IMG/VR virus record: IMGVR_UViG_2713896907_000009
Span: 1 to 11,411 of that record
Direction: 5' to 3' (one strand)
DNA length: 11,411 nt
DNA from: a virus
Lineage: Duplodnaviria > Heunggongvirae > Uroviricota > Caudoviricetes
Part shown: piece by piece, positions 3,355 to 8,616 of the stretch
Layout: every line of letters starts with the position of its first letter
Numbering within the stretch: position 1 is the first letter of the stretch
The notes under the pieces: model-generated
Seen by the model: the letters and a program-made list of their open reading frames with translations, nothing else
The model's database searches: none
What the model was told of the DNA's origin: nothing
Translations under genes and position numbers: made by a program

Positions 3355-4140
3355 TTACTTGATAAATCCTGCCGCCTTTCCCCGCCTGTATTCCTCCATC
3401 AGCCACTGCGCTGGTGTTATTCCCCCAAGGGTGGCGGCGTTAGGCATGCACCCGAAACTTCGCCCTGATGGATGGTAAACGTCTCTCCCTGTGTCCGGAG
3501 GTGTACTCATGGGCTCTGGCTTTGCCTGTATGCTGATCACCGGCTCGGGTATCTGCTGTCCGGAAGCCACCTTTTTCGCCCAATCATCGAGCAGCCTGCG
3601 CGCGTGTTTCTCAACCTCAATCTCGCTAAGCTGGCGCTGATACATTGCACGGCGGGTATCACATACGACCCAGTACATAACCGGATGCCGCCACGGGAAT
3701 CTTTCGGGACCACCAGGATATAAACTTTTTTCCTTGCTGTACCGGTGAAACTCCGCCATCACATCGTCAATGGTGACGCCAAGAACCATCTTGCTGTCTT
3801 TACACCACTTGATGAATTGCCCTGGCGACGGCCAGAACGGAGATTCACTGGCGCGGGCGTGGCGCATACCAGCAGAAACCTGTTCACGGGTTCGGATCCC
3901 CCCTTCGGCAAACGCAGCAATCCACTGCTGTTTTGCAGCAACTTCCTGCTCTGGCGTCTTCAGGTTGGTTACCACTGCCGCCGGAAACAGTTGTTTCAAC
4001 TGTTTGAAAAGGGCATCAACAAGCCTCTCTGCTGACATGTTCACCACGTTGTCATTGTTAGTGTACTGATGCTCATAACCTGACATGCGAGAAAGGGCTT
4101 CTCCGTCACGGTTTTGTATCGCGGTAAAAACGTTGTTCAC
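3355..4140 (-). CDS. Replication protein P-like (helicase loader, lambda P family)
   Basis: ORF 3355-4155; segments PFWPSPGQFIKWC, SLYPGGPERFPWRHPVMYWVV and QIPEPV match lambda P as I recall it (PFLPSPGQFVAWC, GLYPDAESYPWKSNAHYWLV, AIPEPV). Start placed at GTG 4140-4138 (GGGAGGA SD 6 nt upstream), overlapping the upstream stop as GTGA. Confidence 0.7.
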   Translation of the reverse strand: MNNVFTAIQNRDGEALSRMSGYEHQYTNNDNVVNMSAERLVDALFKQLKQLFPAAVVTNLKTPEQEVAAKQQWIAAFAEGGIRTREQVSAGMRHARASESPFWPSPGQFIKWCKDSKMVLGVTIDDVMAEFHRYSKEKSLYPGGPERFPWRHPVMYWVVCDTRRAMYQRQLSEIEVEKHARRLLDDWAKKVASGQQIPEPVISIQAKPEPMSTPPDTGRDVYHPSGRSFGCMPNAATLGGITPAQWLMEEYRRGKAAGFIK

Positions 4141-4976
4141 AAGAAATCCTCCCATGCTTCAGGGCTGTTCCAGTGCGGAACGTTGTTATCAGGTAATGTT
4201 GATTGCTTCTGTCTGCTAATCTGCAGCCGCCTTGCCAGCTTCTGCTCCCACTGTGCCTGATGGTATGCCTTACCCTCAGCCATCCAGTAAATTCTGAACT
4301 CTGCAAGTTCCTGTGCCGTTGGCAGACTGTCCAGGTAGATCCCCTGCAATGAGCTTTTCCGAAGAAAGTCATCTGATGGCTGCCATTGTTCATGCATGAC
4401 AAATTTGCCTAATTGCCCTGGCCCACCAGGAGGAACAAAGTTATTCATCACGGCGTTGTTTGCGCCGGGGTCATGAGGCACAGAATCCCCGGCTTTTGTC
4501 CTGCTCTCCCTCTCTTGGTTAAATGACTGGTTATATGACTGGTTCTGGATCCCGTTTTTGGGATCATTCAACATCCCGTTTTTGGGATCATTCAACATCC
4601 CGTTTTTGGGATCATTCAACATCCCGTTTTTGGGTATATTCCCGTTTTCGGGAACATTACCGTTTTCGGGTTCATTGCTCCATTCCCGGTTGCCTTTAAT
4701 GTTCCCGTTTTTGGTTATATTAAGAGAGAAAACCCGCACTCTTTTCGTCGCTCCCTTTCTCTCTCCGGTATCTGAAATAAGCCCCATTTTCATGAGCGAT
4801 ATAAGCCCGGCCTGTACGGTTTTTTTATTCAGGCAAGTGTCTTTAACGAGGCGTTCTATGCTGGGGTAGCAGAGGTTATATTCATCGGCTCTGTCAGCCA
4901 TCGAGAGCAGTATGAGCTTTAATGACGAGCTACCCGGATCTGTCTCCCAGGCCCAATCTGTTGCATGTCTGCTCAT
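4137..4976 (-). CDS. Replication initiator, O-like (N-terminal DNA-binding domain, Asn-rich repeat linker encoded by iterons, C-terminal domain)
   Basis: ORF 4137-4976, ATG 4976 with GGAG SD. Sits immediately upstream of and coupled to the P-like gene. Contains in-frame 8-aa repeats (PKNGMLND x3) encoded by 24-bp direct repeats, as lambda O contains ori. C-terminal region resembles DnaT/O-type replisome-organiser domains (from memory, unverified). Confidence 0.65.
   Translation of the reverse strand: MSRHATDWAWETDPGSSSLKLILLSMADRADEYNLCYPSIERLVKDTCLNKKTVQAGLISLMKMGLISDTGERKGATKRVRVFSLNITKNGNIKGNREWSNEPENGNVPENGNIPKNGMLNDPKNGMLNDPKNGMLNDPKNGIQNQSYNQSFNQERESRTKAGDSVPHDPGANNAVMNNFVPPGGPGQLGKFVMHEQWQPSDDFLRKSSLQGIYLDSLPTAQELAEFRIYWMAEGKAYHQAQWEQKLARRLQISRQKQSTLPDNNVPHWNSPEAWEDFL
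4547..4700. repeat. Iteron array: three perfect 24-bp direct repeats (4561-4632) flanked by degenerate copies; putative phage replication origin inside the O-like gene
   Basis: ggatcattcaacatcccgtttttg repeated exactly at 4561-4584, 4585-4608 and 4609-4632; partial or degenerate copies at 4547-4560 and 4633-4700. Each unit contains the inverted repeat GGGAT/ATCCC. Confidence 0.6.
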
Positions 4977-5026: not shown

Positions 5027-5192
5027 TCTGCTTAATCTCTGCCCTGATGCGACGGTTTGATTCCATGGTGCACTCAACACAGTGTCCGTTGTAAACCCAG
5101 CGTTCACTGTCATGTCCGTGCTTACATGGTTTTCCGGTGTAGTAGCGTTTAAGTCCGCGCTTTGCGGCATCAATACGTGTAATGATTTCCAT
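4992..5192 (-). CDS. Small zinc-finger protein (66 aa), function unknown; occupies the position downstream of cro
   Basis: ORF 4992-5255; start assigned to internal ATG 5192 (MEIITRIDAAK...) because the N-terminal extension MIFFLCQHKITVIPILITGLT looks non-coding and runs into the intergenic terminator region. Product has C-x-H-x-H ... C-x2-C spacing (KPCKHGHDSERWVYNGHCVEC). Confidence 0.45.
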   Translation of the reverse strand: MEIITRIDAAKRGLKRYYTGKPCKHGHDSERWVYNGHCVECTMESNRRIRAEIKQIMINSSPQHSS

Positions 5193-5290
5193 GGTAAGCC
5201 CCGTTATTAGTATTGGGATTACGGTTATTTTGTGCTGACACAAAAAAAAGATCAACCAGATTTGGTTTTTTATTACCTTTGAGGTGCGAA

Positions 5291-5342: not shown

Positions 5343-5573
5343 TCATGAGTAGAAGAAGTATGCCAGTTCTGCTTTTGAGCGCAGCCATTGTCTTGTTTTA
5401 CAGGCTTTAAAAAGCCCATTCATCAATACCTTACCTGGCATTTTGCGCTTACCTGTTAAGTGAGTCTGGATATAGTGACTCGTCGTTCCGGCTTCCTGTG
5501 CGAAGGCTTCACGCTCATCTGGAGTAAGTGCAAGCCAGTGCTTTTTGAAATCGAAATGTCCGTTATCGCTCAT
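5343..5573 (-). CDS. Cro-like small HTH DNA-binding protein (76 aa)
   Basis: ORF 5343-5573, divergent from the repressor gene across an operator-containing region. Segment EAFAQEAGTTSHYIQTHLTGKRKMPGK resembles the HTH of Cro/YdaS-type proteins. SD is weak. Confidence 0.5.
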   Translation of the reverse strand: MSDNGHFDFKKHWLALTPDEREAFAQEAGTTSHYIQTHLTGKRKMPGKVLMNGLFKACKTRQWLRSKAELAYFFYS

Positions 5574-5608
5574 AGCTATTGCCTGATATTTATTTCAGAT
5601 AATAAATA

Positions 5609-5672
5609 TTCACCCATAAGGTAACAAAAATCAAGGATAGTTACCTATGGGGTGCATTTACCTGTTGGGTAA
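5609..5672. promoter_or_regulatory. Divergent promoter/operator region between the Cro-like and repressor genes with three operator-like sites
   Basis: Sites at 5609-5623 (TCACC CATAA GGTAA), 5641-5655 (TTACC TATGG GGTGC) and 5658-5672 (TTACC TGTTG GGTAA, perfect) in an AT-rich 154-bp intergenic region; -35-like TTGATT on the minus strand. I could not place the -10 elements confidently. Confidence 0.5.
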
Positions 5673-5727: not shown

Positions 5728-6312
5728 ATGAAAAGTATCCAGGACGTCCGCAGGCAAAATCTCAACGACTTGATCGACCGTGAATTCAATGGTGTTCAGA
5801 CGCGGATGGCAGAAAAACTTGGAACTCAGGCAAATCTGGTAAACCGCTGGGCTCTTGGCAAGAAGGTTATCGGCGACCAGGTTGCGCGAAAAATTGAAGC
5901 TGCCGCCAATAAACCCCGTAACTGGCTTGATATCGATCGCTCGCTTTCTCAGGAAGGTTTTCAGCCTGTCGGACCAAGCGACATTGGTCAGCTGGCGGCT
6001 CACAACCTGGAACGCTGGATGAGCGAAAGCCGCGACCTTTCAACGCAGGGAAAACTTCACCGCGCATCCGGCGTCGCCCAGGTGACAATCAGCCGCCTGT
6101 TAAACAATGAGGTCAGCGTTTCCATTTCCACCCTGGAGAATGTTGCATCAGCATTCGGGCGTCACGGATATGAACTACTGATTCACCCACACGACCCTGC
6201 GACTATCAACTATGACCGCTCGCGCTACGCTTTGTTACCCGAAACCGAGAAAGCAAAGATCGAAAGTTACATTGAATTTGTCATCAACCAGAACGAAAAA
6301 AACAAACAATAA
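5728..6312 (+). CDS. Phage repressor-like protein with two tandem XRE-type HTH domains and no S24 peptidase domain
   Basis: ORF 5728-6312. HTH 1 about aa 25-70 (VQTRMAEKLGTQANLVNRWALGKK...); HTH 2 about aa 105-150 (LHRASGVAQVTISRLLNNEVSVSISTLENVASAF). C-terminus has no Ser/Lys dyad or Ala-Gly cleavage context. Flanked on both sides by TTACC-N5-GGTAA sites. Confidence 0.65.
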   Translation: MKSIQDVRRQNLNDLIDREFNGVQTRMAEKLGTQANLVNRWALGKKVIGDQVARKIEAAANKPRNWLDIDRSLSQEGFQPVGPSDIGQLAAHNLERWMSESRDLSTQGKLHRASGVAQVTISRLLNNEVSVSISTLENVASAFGRHGYELLIHPHDPATINYDRSRYALLPETEKAKIESYIEFVINQNEKNKQ

Positions 6313-7738: not shown

Positions 7739-8616
7739 GCAATGATATCGCAATCACATCACAACCTGGCGCAACTGTAGGTACTGCTGCGGCAATCTTC
7801 AGCCCGGAGGGCATGAATCAACTGGTGCGTTTCGCGGAGTTGATGTCACAAAGCAAAGCGACTGTACCGAAACATCTTGAAGGCAAACCTGCCGATTGCC
7901 TGGCGGTGACCATGCAGGCGGCACAGTGGGGAATGAACCCGTTCGCCGTGGCGCAGAAAACGCATGTGGTAAACGGAACGTTAGGCTACGAAGCACAGTT
8001 GGTAAACGCGGTCGTATCCTCTTCCAGCCTGCTGGCGACACGCCTGAATTATCGCTGGAGCGGTGACTGGTCGAATGTTAACGGCAAAACAGATAAATCA
8101 CCGAATCTGACGGTAACTGTGTCAGCAGTTCTTAAAGGAGAAGCAGAACCACGTGAGCTTACCATCAGTATGGCGCAAGCCGGAGTGCGTAACTCTCCAT
8201 TGTGGGAACAGGATCCGCGCCAGCAGCTTGCCTATCTTTGCACGAAACGATGGGCTCGCCTGCACGCTCCTGATGTACTTCTCGGTGTTTACACCCCTGA
8301 AGAATTACAGGAAACGGCACCGCGCGTTGAGCGAGACATTACTCCGCAAACAACTACGGCTGCGGGAATGAATAGTCTGATCAACGCTAAAACAGTGAAA
8401 AAGCCTGATGAGCAAACGCGTAAAGCGGATAGCCGTGATCCAGAAGAAATGCTGATGGCCTTTACCAGCGCAGCAATGAATTACAGCACTGTCTCCGAAC
8501 TGGATAAGGCTTACAAATACATTGCACAAAAACTTTCAGATGATGACGAACTGCTGGCAAAAGCCACCGACGTTTACAGCGTTCGTCGGGAAGAATTAAA
8601 CGAAACATCTATGTAA
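7735..8616 (+). CDS. Single-strand annealing protein, Bet/RecT (Red-beta) family
   Basis: ORF 7735-8616. Segments GMNPFAVAQKTHVV, PLWEQDPRQQLAYLCTKRWARL and ERDITP parallel lambda Bet as I recall it (GLNPWTKEIYAF, PWQSHPKRMLRHKAMIQCARL, ERDITP). Sits directly downstream of a nuclease, as in exo/bet and recE/recT pairs. Confidence 0.75.
   Translation: MSNDIAITSQPGATVGTAAAIFSPEGMNQLVRFAELMSQSKATVPKHLEGKPADCLAVTMQAAQWGMNPFAVAQKTHVVNGTLGYEAQLVNAVVSSSSLLATRLNYRWSGDWSNVNGKTDKSPNLTVTVSAVLKGEAEPRELTISMAQAGVRNSPLWEQDPRQQLAYLCTKRWARLHAPDVLLGVYTPEELQETAPRVERDITPQTTTAAGMNSLINAKTVKKPDEQTRKADSRDPEEMLMAFTSAAMNYSTVSELDKAYKYIAQKLSDDDELLAKATDVYSVRREELNETSM

Follow-up and report, generated by a model that had tools for sequence, protein, structure and literature searches.

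Direct repeats within a prophage initiator gene as the probable iterons of a lambda-style replication origin

The DNA analysed here, called the window throughout, is a stretch of 11,411 nucleotides from the IMG/VR record IMGVR_UViG_2713896907_000009 that carries an array of short direct repeats inside an open reading frame (ORF) on the minus strand. On sequence comparison, we consider it likely that these repeats serve as iterons in a lambda-style replication origin located inside the initiator gene of a phiV10-like (Uetakevirus-type) Escherichia coli prophage. An iteron origin within a gene is of a textbook kind, and this particular origin family appears to be undescribed and widespread. Judged by the searched literature and the record annotations, the new elements are an iteron tied to this initiator family, its unusual conservation across hosts, an accompanying direct-repeat element and free-standing arrays. 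The main features are as follows.

4547..4720, minus strand: putative iteron array of seven cores, (T)CCC-RAAAAC-GGG(A), assigned from repeat statistics and from the same core in all frames of distant relatives.
4551-4562, 4575-4586, 4599-4610, 4623-4634, 4641-4652, 4659-4670 and 4704-4715, minus strand: the individual cores, with start-to-start distances of 24, 24, 24, 18, 18 and 45.
4549..4634, minus strand: perfect 24-bp units, 3.6 copies of CCCAAAAACGGGATGTTGAATGAT on the coding strand, identified by Tandem Repeats Finder (TRF); this is the part of the array that varies in copy number.
4137..4976, minus strand: probable replication initiator gene of 279 aa with an N-terminal winged helix, a repeat-encoded linker and a C-terminal DnaT-like domain, assigned from the ORF, Pfam and identity to phiV10 gp43.

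TRF detected a period of 24 at 4549-4634 (3.6 copies, 100% matches, score 172) and an overlapping array with an 18-bp period at 4622-4676 (3.1 copies, 83%). A repeat search returned one 24-nt family of seven copies at 4546-4722, with spacings of 24, 24, 24, 18, 18 and 45. When up to one mismatch was allowed, the core CCCRAAAACGGK matched seven times in the window, always on the minus strand and always within 4551-4715 (starts at 4551, 4575, 4599, 4623, 4641, 4659 and 4704). Dinucleotide shuffles of the window gave an expectation of 0.22 matches, and seven were reached in 0 of 200 shuffles. No core copy, for example at an operator-like site, was found outside the array in the 11.4-kb window. 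Each strong unit contains the inverted repeat ATCCC-AAAAAC-GGGAT, that is, an imperfect dyad around an A-tract. The array begins 1 nt past the region coding for the winged-helix N-terminal domain (N-domain, aa 1-87; Pfam HTH_36), and its seven direct repeats all lie inside the initiator ORF. The general features of an iteron origin, at least three direct repeats of 17–24 bp in one orientation with the initiator gene in cis, are also present. The units are in frame in ORF 4137-4976 and encode TKNG...PENG..PENG..(PKNGMLND)x3..PKNG, followed by NQSYNQSFNQ. Perfect 24-bp repeats with additional degenerate copies, in-frame PKNGMLND coding and a GGGAT...ATCCC inverted repeat in each unit had already been described in an initial annotation of this DNA, and all of them are seen in the sequence. 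Its strand had to be corrected, as the gene lies on the minus strand. The extent it gave, 4547-4700, does contain repeats but is too short, since the feature reaches lower and includes a 12-bp direct repeat at 4516-4544.

We compared the array among distant relatives. A protein homologue search with an 88-aa N-domain query returned 35 short proteins, several of them truncated or frameshifted, which were of no use for diversity, and a full-length protein query listed only proteins with 88–99% identity, nearly all from E. coli. The diversity sample came instead from tblastn on phage records and from a DNA-pattern scan. By tblastn, N-domain homologues with 35–55% identity were found in Edwardsiella GF-2 and EPP-1, Vibrio H20, Acinetobacter AP22 and others, Burkholderia Bcep176, an EBPR podovirus and the E. 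coli PPompW prophage. All of these homologues carry an array directly 3′ of the N-domain. In 10 diverged homologues, the 12-mer (up to two mismatches to CCCAAAAACGGG) matched 35 times on the coding strand and twice on the opposite strand; all matches except one fell at nt 260-460, and the codon-shuffle null was 0.03–0.18 per gene. Frames 0, 1 and 2 are all used. CCC AAA AAC GGG reads PKNG, the frame A CCC AAA AAC GGG A gives TQKRE, TQKRD, SQKRD or PQKRD, and the third frame gives DPKTE or VPKSG. In the relatives that keep the frame, the middle residues vary radically (KN, KI, EN, IY, KF) while the CCC...GGG dyad and the A/T spacer stay, as in ACCCAAATTTGGGT and GTCCCAAATTTGGGAC. The lambda iterons likewise fall in different frames.

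The reverse test was a scan of IMG/VR by DNA pattern only, requiring two cores 13–30 nt apart, which yielded at least 119 loci; as these were chosen by motif, only their N-domain association, position and strand count as independent evidence. An N-domain hidden Markov model matched an ORF in 110 of the at least 119 loci. Among the matches listed, there are 617 gene-oriented cores in 1.09 Mb, 582 of them within 360 nt directly after the N-domain, compared to 48 cores on the opposite strand. These loci form 38 N-domain clusters, 27 of which use at least two frames, and only 75 of 128 core-to-core spacings (59%) are divisible by 3. The family profile is T-CCC-RAAAAC-GGG-A, in which flanks not used in the selection extend the dyad, with T at -1 (0.54) and A at +12 (0.67). 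Hosts of the core family include Enterobacterales, Vibrio, Acinetobacter and Burkholderia, and metagenomic phages carry it as well.

Nine pattern loci had no N-domain match: two were cut at the locus end, two were identical high-GC contigs and five were Acinetobacter-like contigs. In the last group, non-coding DNA that separates divergent genes holds 2–5 ATCCCAAAAACGGGTACATTCAAA units as well as inverted copies. Contigs with such arrays are given here.

L129 ~5561-5656 of the reverse strand; L171 7874-7990; L181, L188, L194 and L202: non-coding ATCCCAAAAACGGGTACATTCAAA arrays.

Contig L171 holds, 7 kb away from its non-coding array (7874-7990), an initiator gene with an in-gene array, followed by a dnaB-type helicase gene. 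The non-coding arrays of the Acinetobacter-like contigs are possibly a second origin, a copy-control site or a decoy. In the two identical high-GC metagenomic contigs (L108 5391-5440, L159 9462-9510), cores of the GGCCC(A/G)AAAACGGGC type lie in an ORF (GPQNGPKNGLENGPQSGPENG). No recognisable HTH_36 N-domain was found upstream of these cores, and the ORF may be a more divergent initiator or represent another context. Since the core is used in three reading frames and some arrays are non-coding, selection acts on the DNA and not on the peptide, a conclusion that we regard as close to certain.

Which protein would read the array? The two domains of the initiator were assigned as follows.

4716..4976, minus strand: N-terminal winged-helix domain (aa 1-87), the presumed iteron reader, based on an AlphaFold2 model, Foldseek, a wing motif and co-occurrence with the array in 38 clusters.
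4158..4415, minus strand: C-terminal DnaT-like domain (aa 188-273), single-stranded DNA (ssDNA)-binding, three-helix, based on phmmer against PDB and on Pfam DnaT.

The array accompanies the N-domain across different C-domains. These are DnaT in the window and in PPompW, the lambda-O C-domain in GF-2, Phg_2220_C in EPP-1 and unassigned domains in H20, AP22, Bcep176 and EBPR1. The gene downstream of the initiators in the relatives encodes either a P-type loader or a DnaB-type helicase. In the SPN1S initiator, a DnaT C-domain is attached to a different N-domain, and no comparable array was found there. Because only the DnaT C-domain is shared and the array is lacking, the SPN1S/epsilon15 type serves as a negative control and not as a relative; in Salmonella phage SPN1S (L010, 1030-1845) no P gene lies downstream of this initiator. 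Homologous N-domains have an almost constant wing motif, DTGE(R/K)(K/R)G.T, which appears in one alignment as an invariant DTGE.KG.T. As the array tracks the N-domain whatever C-domain follows, binding by the N-domain is the best inference, probably as one dimer per dyad.

The initiator of Edwardsiella phage GF-2 (L006, 1501-2343) provided the strongest indirect evidence for an origin. Over residues 137-280 it shares 62% identity with lambda O residues 156-299 (E 2e-67). The remainder, residues 1-136, takes in the HTH_36 domain, a set of three 24-bp ATCCCAAAATTGGGAT units and GAAY repeats in a run, and a P gene follows. On the lambda map, residue 156 of lambda O falls at about nt 39151. This point lies immediately to the right of both the annotated iterons (39034-39118) and the AT-rich tract, and it adjoins two recombination junctions annotated in the lambda record. 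The position of the fusion point thus indicates that "lambda O N-domain plus ori-lambda" was exchanged for "HTH_36 domain plus array" as one unit. A swap of this type would be the behaviour expected of origin-specificity modules. Weaker support came from two circular records in a plasmid collection. The first, an 8,461-bp E. coli record (NZ_CP148379.1, L218), is made up solely of a dicA/dicC-type (Qin/PPompW-type) immunity region, ydaT, a PPompW-type initiator in which the same cores occur, a P-like gene, hokD, rem and a few cargo genes; it has no other replication gene and resembles lambda-dv. The second (NZ_CP079771.1, L219), of 41,027 bp, is a whole phiV10-like genome. Both circles could be assembly products.

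A different repeat adjoins the array on the promoter-distal side.

4516..4550, minus strand: junction ATCCAG followed by the 12-mers AACCAGTCATAT / AACCAGTCATTT / AACCA, identified by TRF; candidate unwinding element resembling a DNA unwinding element (DUE), promoter-distal to the iterons.

TRF reported a period of 12 at 4516-4544 (2.4 copies, score 51), made of direct 12-mers AACCAGTCATWT. Elsewhere in the window this pattern gave only two-mismatch matches at chance level. Similar repeats occur in H20 (CAGAACCAGTCATTA GAACCAGTCATA GAACCAAGT, with the frame shifting between copies), in Bcep176 (four copies of GAACAGTAG at ~10 bp) and in other relatives (GAACCTATCAA three times, AGAACAGGGAAAT four times). 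A direct 9-mer repeat with a spacing of 9–14 nt was present at most 55 nt past the last iteron in 21 of 36 clusters, compared to 5 of 109 control segments of the same genes and 53 of 1800 shuffles. The GC content of the 40 nt after the last core was below that of the gene in the window (0.38 and 0.48, respectively), in Bcep176 (0.42 and 0.61) and in EPP-1 (0.35 and 0.55). In phiV10, GF-2, Bcep176 and EPP-1, no 30-mer of the gene is less stable than that in the 12-mer zone, which does not hold for the window gene. On these comparisons the 12-mers may form an unwinding or helicase-loading zone, a proposal on which we are evenly divided. 

About 25 nt past the 12-mers, at 4464-4493, lies an inverted repeat GCCGGGG-N16-CCCCGGC. 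Its arms of 7 nt are short and could be due to chance; its position is where lambda has a palindrome right of the AT-rich tract. Some relatives carry an ACCCCCC..CCCCC..GGGGG element just after the direct repeats (EPP-1, L093, ~nt 1670-1700; L136; L156), which the window lacks. The CCCCC..GGGGG element of the relatives is similar to CCCCCTTACCCCCTAAAGGGGG, a palindrome that closes the annotated P22 origin on its right side (L216, 1965-1990).

To follow the copy number among close relatives, we used the best 80 IMG/VR loci by N-domain alignment, which are all ~100% identical and therefore informative for copy number only. The array is retained in all 78 loci with a complete ORF. It is also present in the functional phage phiV10. 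The 39 distinct linker DNAs contain 1–5 perfect 24-bp units, 1–4 units of 18 bp and 2–3 of the 12-mers. Their length differences are multiples of 3, and the smallest version still has five cores. Among phage records with ~95% identity, the perfect 24-bp unit is present three times in the window, twice in phiV10, twice in EC.W1-9 and once in BP9, and phiV10 has one additional 12-mer compared to the window. E. coli chromosomal copies of the gene range from 792 to 852 bp and are mostly 816 bp long. The perfect 24-bp units are recent in-frame duplications; the iteron number drifts between strains and the array is not lost. Iteron number also varies among working lambdoid origins, with four in lambda and six in Stx phages (PMC7466680). 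The BP9 record itself (PP488543.1, L002) is a 138-kb Vequintavirus record with a phiV10-like early region (repressor, initiator, P, DUF1064, ea22) at its end (131937-138295), which looks like a chimeric assembly or contaminating prophage DNA.

Several additional properties of the array region were recorded. Four of the 36 GATC sites of the window fall inside 66 nt (4548-4613), one per perfect 24-bp unit (TGATCC), while the window average is 0.32 per 100 nt. This cluster could mean Dam methylation or SeqA sequestration. GATC is not a feature of the family, since the units of Vibrio H20 and Acinetobacter AP22 lack it. A pattern scan marked three terminator-like hairpins on the plus strand at 4559-4626, antisense to the gene, each made of adjacent iteron arms followed by a T-run; they are probably a by-product of the dyad plus the T-run. 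Purine-rich stretches that resemble each other flank the array on either side, at 4500-4515 and 4745-4768. Their minus-strand sequences are GGAGAGAGAAAGGGAGCGACGAAAAG (upstream) and AAGAGAGGGAGAGCAGGACAAAAG (downstream), and they encode ERKGATK and ERESRTK. Programmed -1 frameshifting on CCC AAA AAC was considered and rejected, as the run is not an X XXY YYZ heptamer in the frame of the gene. In some records (CP025713.1 YDC107_2, L004 334-1119; proteins P0005, P0009, P0025 and P0031), the gene is disrupted by single-base insertions or deletions within A-runs of its repeats. Truncated "primosomal domain" proteins result, together with an antisense "membrane protein" that is spurious. The frameshifted entries (YDC107_2, P0005, P0009) appear to be A-run sequencing errors, and the repeats appear prone to errors of sequencing and annotation.

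We weighed three other explanations of the repeats. A purely coding tandem duplication, in which slippage builds a flexible Asn/Gly/Pro-rich linker that has no function as DNA, would fit the window, where all units are in frame, the periods of 24 and 18 are multiples of 3 and the copy number is strain-variable; 59% of the family-wide spacings are multiples of 3 as well. This reading is largely refuted by the frame analysis, which found the identical 12-mer in three frames encoding unrelated peptides. It also does not account for middle residues that change radically under a persistent CCC/GGG dyad and A/T spacer, for arrays in non-coding DNA or for the strict strand bias of 617 to 48, and we regard it as extremely unlikely. 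The array could also be bound by a different protein (a host factor, a phage repressor or a packaging protein) or act through an antisense hairpin or terminator, in either case independently of the initiator. The three terminator-like hairpins on the plus strand would fit such a role, and the GATC in each perfect unit could attract Dam or SeqA. However, the hairpins are weak (six pairs, three of them G-C) and the automatic outcome of a dyad plus an A-tract, and GATC is missing from the H20 and AP22 units. Moreover, the array occurs with one N-domain family across Vibrio, Acinetobacter and Burkholderia hosts and next to differing neighbour genes. We regard this explanation as very unlikely.

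In the remaining alternative, the initiator does bind these sites, but they serve autoregulation, titration or copy control (handcuffing), and true unwinding takes place elsewhere, for example in the AT-rich regions at ~5190-5280 or 5550-5640. These two intergenic regions have a GC content of 0.27–0.37, whereas no AT-rich tract of lambda grade lies by the array, and the separate non-coding arrays of some relatives indicate that arrays can work away from the gene. On the other hand, both regions are ordinary promoter/operator spacers without a core copy, and GF-2 exchanges array and N-domain exactly for ori-lambda. In addition, conserved frame-independent direct repeats and a local stability minimum adjoin the last iteron family-wide. 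We therefore consider this alternative unlikely.

An origin within the initiator gene has to be judged in the light of several findings that weigh against it. All seven window cores share one reading frame (frame 0), and the frame argument thus depends on the relatives, of which the IMG/VR loci were selected by the motif itself. The composition profile revealed no AT-rich tract of lambda grade, with a GC content of 0.33–0.38 over 24–40 nt compared to ~0.2–0.25 in lambda. The 8.46-kb circle may be an assembly product, as mentioned above. A literature search found no description of these repeats and no report of binding, unwinding or autonomous replication. Finally, the initiator gave no match above the gathering score to Phage_rep_O (PF04492), and only HTH_36 and DnaT were matched; lambda O and P22 gp18 match PF04492 at E 6e-36 and E 7e-38. 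BLASTP detected no similarity between the initiator and lambda O. Hhalign of the initiator with lambda O / P22 gp18 gave a probability of 51% and E 1.6e-4 for one comparison, and the alignment, which covers the helix-turn-helix plus wing, is suggestive only.

Nevertheless, the comparison of frames, the linkage to the N-domain, the GF-2 chimera and the P homologue support the lambda-like in-gene iteron origin that the initial annotation had proposed. Its term "O-like" holds for the position and architecture of the gene and not for its family, which is HTH_36 plus DnaT by Pfam and not Phage_rep_O. As the initiator falls outside that family, the term is an analogy only. The annotation had also seen that the repeat differs from the lambda iterons, and indeed the dyad is CCC-N6-GGG here and CCC-N9-GGG in lambda, a difference in spacing that implies a distinct specificity. 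Absence of the repeats from functional relatives, which it had named as a refutation, was not observed: they are present in 78 of 78 complete ORFs and in phiV10.

Based on these results, initiation might proceed as follows. Seven direct sites with the dyad core TCCC-RAAAAC-GGGA lie immediately 3′ of the winged-helix coding region. As suggested by co-variation and dyad symmetry, N-domain dimers would bind each site, and the phased A-tracts would help to wrap the DNA into an O-some-like complex. Torsional stress could then open the adjacent, less stable direct 12-mers (AACCAGTCATWT). By homology, the DnaT-like C-domain would hold ssDNA and/or contact the helicase loader, and the neighbouring lambda-P-type protein would then deliver host DnaB. 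As in lambda, early-operon transcription that passes through the gene may help the origin to fire.

The initiator protein was characterized by several approaches. Pfam assigned HTH_36 (PF13730) to aa 18-67 (E 1.9e-10, 40.8 bits with a gathering cut-off of 25) and DnaT to aa 192-260 (E 1.2e-15). The AlphaFold2 model of aa 1-94 is a winged helix of four helices and a beta-hairpin wing, with a predicted local distance difference test (pLDDT) score of 85. Foldseek with this model returned only generic winged-helix matches (E >= 2e-3) and no specific initiator relative. With phmmer against PDB, the C-terminal 85 residues (aa 188-273) aligned to E. coli DnaT residues 85-170 (9zbt, 6aep and 4ou6, E 7e-21 to 4e-20), and no relative of solved structure was found by sequence for the N-terminal part. 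The initiator region is 96% DNA-identical to gp43 of phage phiV10 (Uetakevirus), a "replication initiation protein"; the phiV10 record annotates terminators and no origin or iterons. The gene was found in 424 of 5426 complete E. coli genomes, where it is called "DnaT-like ssDNA-binding domain-containing protein" or "primosomal protein" because of its C-terminal homology to the ssDNA-binding C-domain of DnaT. The window protein is not a DnaT orthologue, and its database name hides a probable initiator role.

Two further features are located around the initiator gene.

3355..4140, minus strand: helicase-loader gene of the lambda-P family, with a GTG start that overlaps the initiator stop (GTGA); Pfam Phage_lambda_P, E 1e-56.
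5599..5627, minus strand: promoter-like site, TTGTTA-17-TATTAT, preceding the leftward early operon, which runs on through the initiator gene; consensus scan.

The P-family protein has 32% identity to lambda P (E 4e-36) and the same length as phiV10p44, and its gene lies directly downstream of the initiator gene, as expected for the ori-lambda architecture. Upstream of the initiator gene there are small ORFs and a divergent repressor-like gene at 5728-6312 (plus strand). The promoter-like site is found in the AT-rich divergent region between this gene and ORF 5343-5573 (minus strand). The promoter call is weak, since the number of consensus sites is not above that of shuffles.

About 8% of complete E. 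coli genomes contain the gene, for which no origin is annotated in phage records. Should our reading be true, phiV10-type phages, which serve as O157 reporter phages, would gain a concrete origin, as would many phages of Vibrio, Acinetobacter, Edwardsiella and Burkholderia. A DNA signature (core array plus GAACC repeats) would become available for origin annotation, and there would be a natural case of initiator/origin module swapping with lambda O. Since Pro and Gly codons allow synonymous recoding, coding and cis functions would be cleanly separable. With a core this strongly conserved, one may also ask whether co-resident prophages show replicon cross-talk. Iterons of the lambda family diverge quickly between phages. 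Against this background, a conserved core would predict cross-recognition between prophages, seen as replicon interference or incompatibility. A broader and more doubtful proposal, which we put forward tentatively, is that a large HTH_36 phage-initiator family shares one nearly unchanged 12-bp core, (T)CCCRAAAACGGG(A), always followed by GAACC-type 10–13-mer repeats that would be a new sequence-specific unwinding/loading element. Under this proposal, co-resident prophages would cross-recognize each other's sites, free-standing arrays would be decoys, copy-control sites or second origins, and the ancestry might be common with lambda O/ori-lambda.

Lastly, we compared the system with known ones. 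E. coli DnaT (primosomal protein I) is similar in that the C-terminal 85 residues are homologous to its ssDNA-binding C-domain (E ~1e-20). It differs in that the N-terminal two thirds are unrelated, so that homology does not extend over the full length, and in that the window gene belongs to a phage replication module beside a P homologue. In iteron plasmids (RK2 TrfA, pPS10 RepA, F RepE), a winged-helix initiator is combined with a direct-repeat array beside a DUE with short direct repeats, and RepA_N plasmids such as pSK41 carry iterons inside repA. The window shares with them the winged-helix initiator with a direct-repeat array, and the RepA_N N-domain (4pql, 4pt7) is among the fold matches. 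These matches are generic only (E >= 2e-3), and here the module is a phage one, driven by the early operon and equipped with a P-type loader.

In P22 gene 18/ori, the origin is annotated inside the initiator gene, with iterons followed by an AT-rich zone. This zone holds two direct 13-mers (CAAAAGACAATAT / ACAAAAGACAATA), the closest parallel to the window 12-mers, and a CCCCC...GGGGG element after the repeats is shared with the window-gene relatives EPP-1 and L136. In contrast to the window gene product, gp18 belongs to Phage_rep_O, its iteron (of the TCGGTAAAAC type) is unrelated and its partner is the DnaB-type helicase gp12 instead of a P-type loader.

Lambda O/ori-lambda, with the Stx phages 933W and P27, differs in several respects. 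The N-domain is HTH_36 here and Phage_rep_O in lambda, the C-domain is DnaT-like here and the lambda O C-domain there, and the dyads have the different spacers given above. The window has seven sites in one frame, whereas lambda has four, which fall in different frames owing to their spacings of 20, 24 and 23 bp. Two or three direct 12-mers of moderate AT content stand in place of the 40-bp AT-rich tract. The similarities concern the overall architecture. In both systems the origin, putative in the window, occupies the central part of the initiator gene immediately 3′ of the DNA-binding domain, and consists of direct sites with a periodicity of ~18–24 bp. Each site has a TCCC...A-tract...GGGA dyad in the same orientation to the gene (lambda iteron ATCCCTCAAAACGAGGGA). 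On the promoter-distal side, lambda has its AT-rich tract and the window the far less AT-rich 12-mer zone, a candidate for the same role; a P-family loader gene follows immediately downstream in both. Iteron number varies naturally among relatives in both, and, as the GF-2 chimera shows, their modules are interchangeable.

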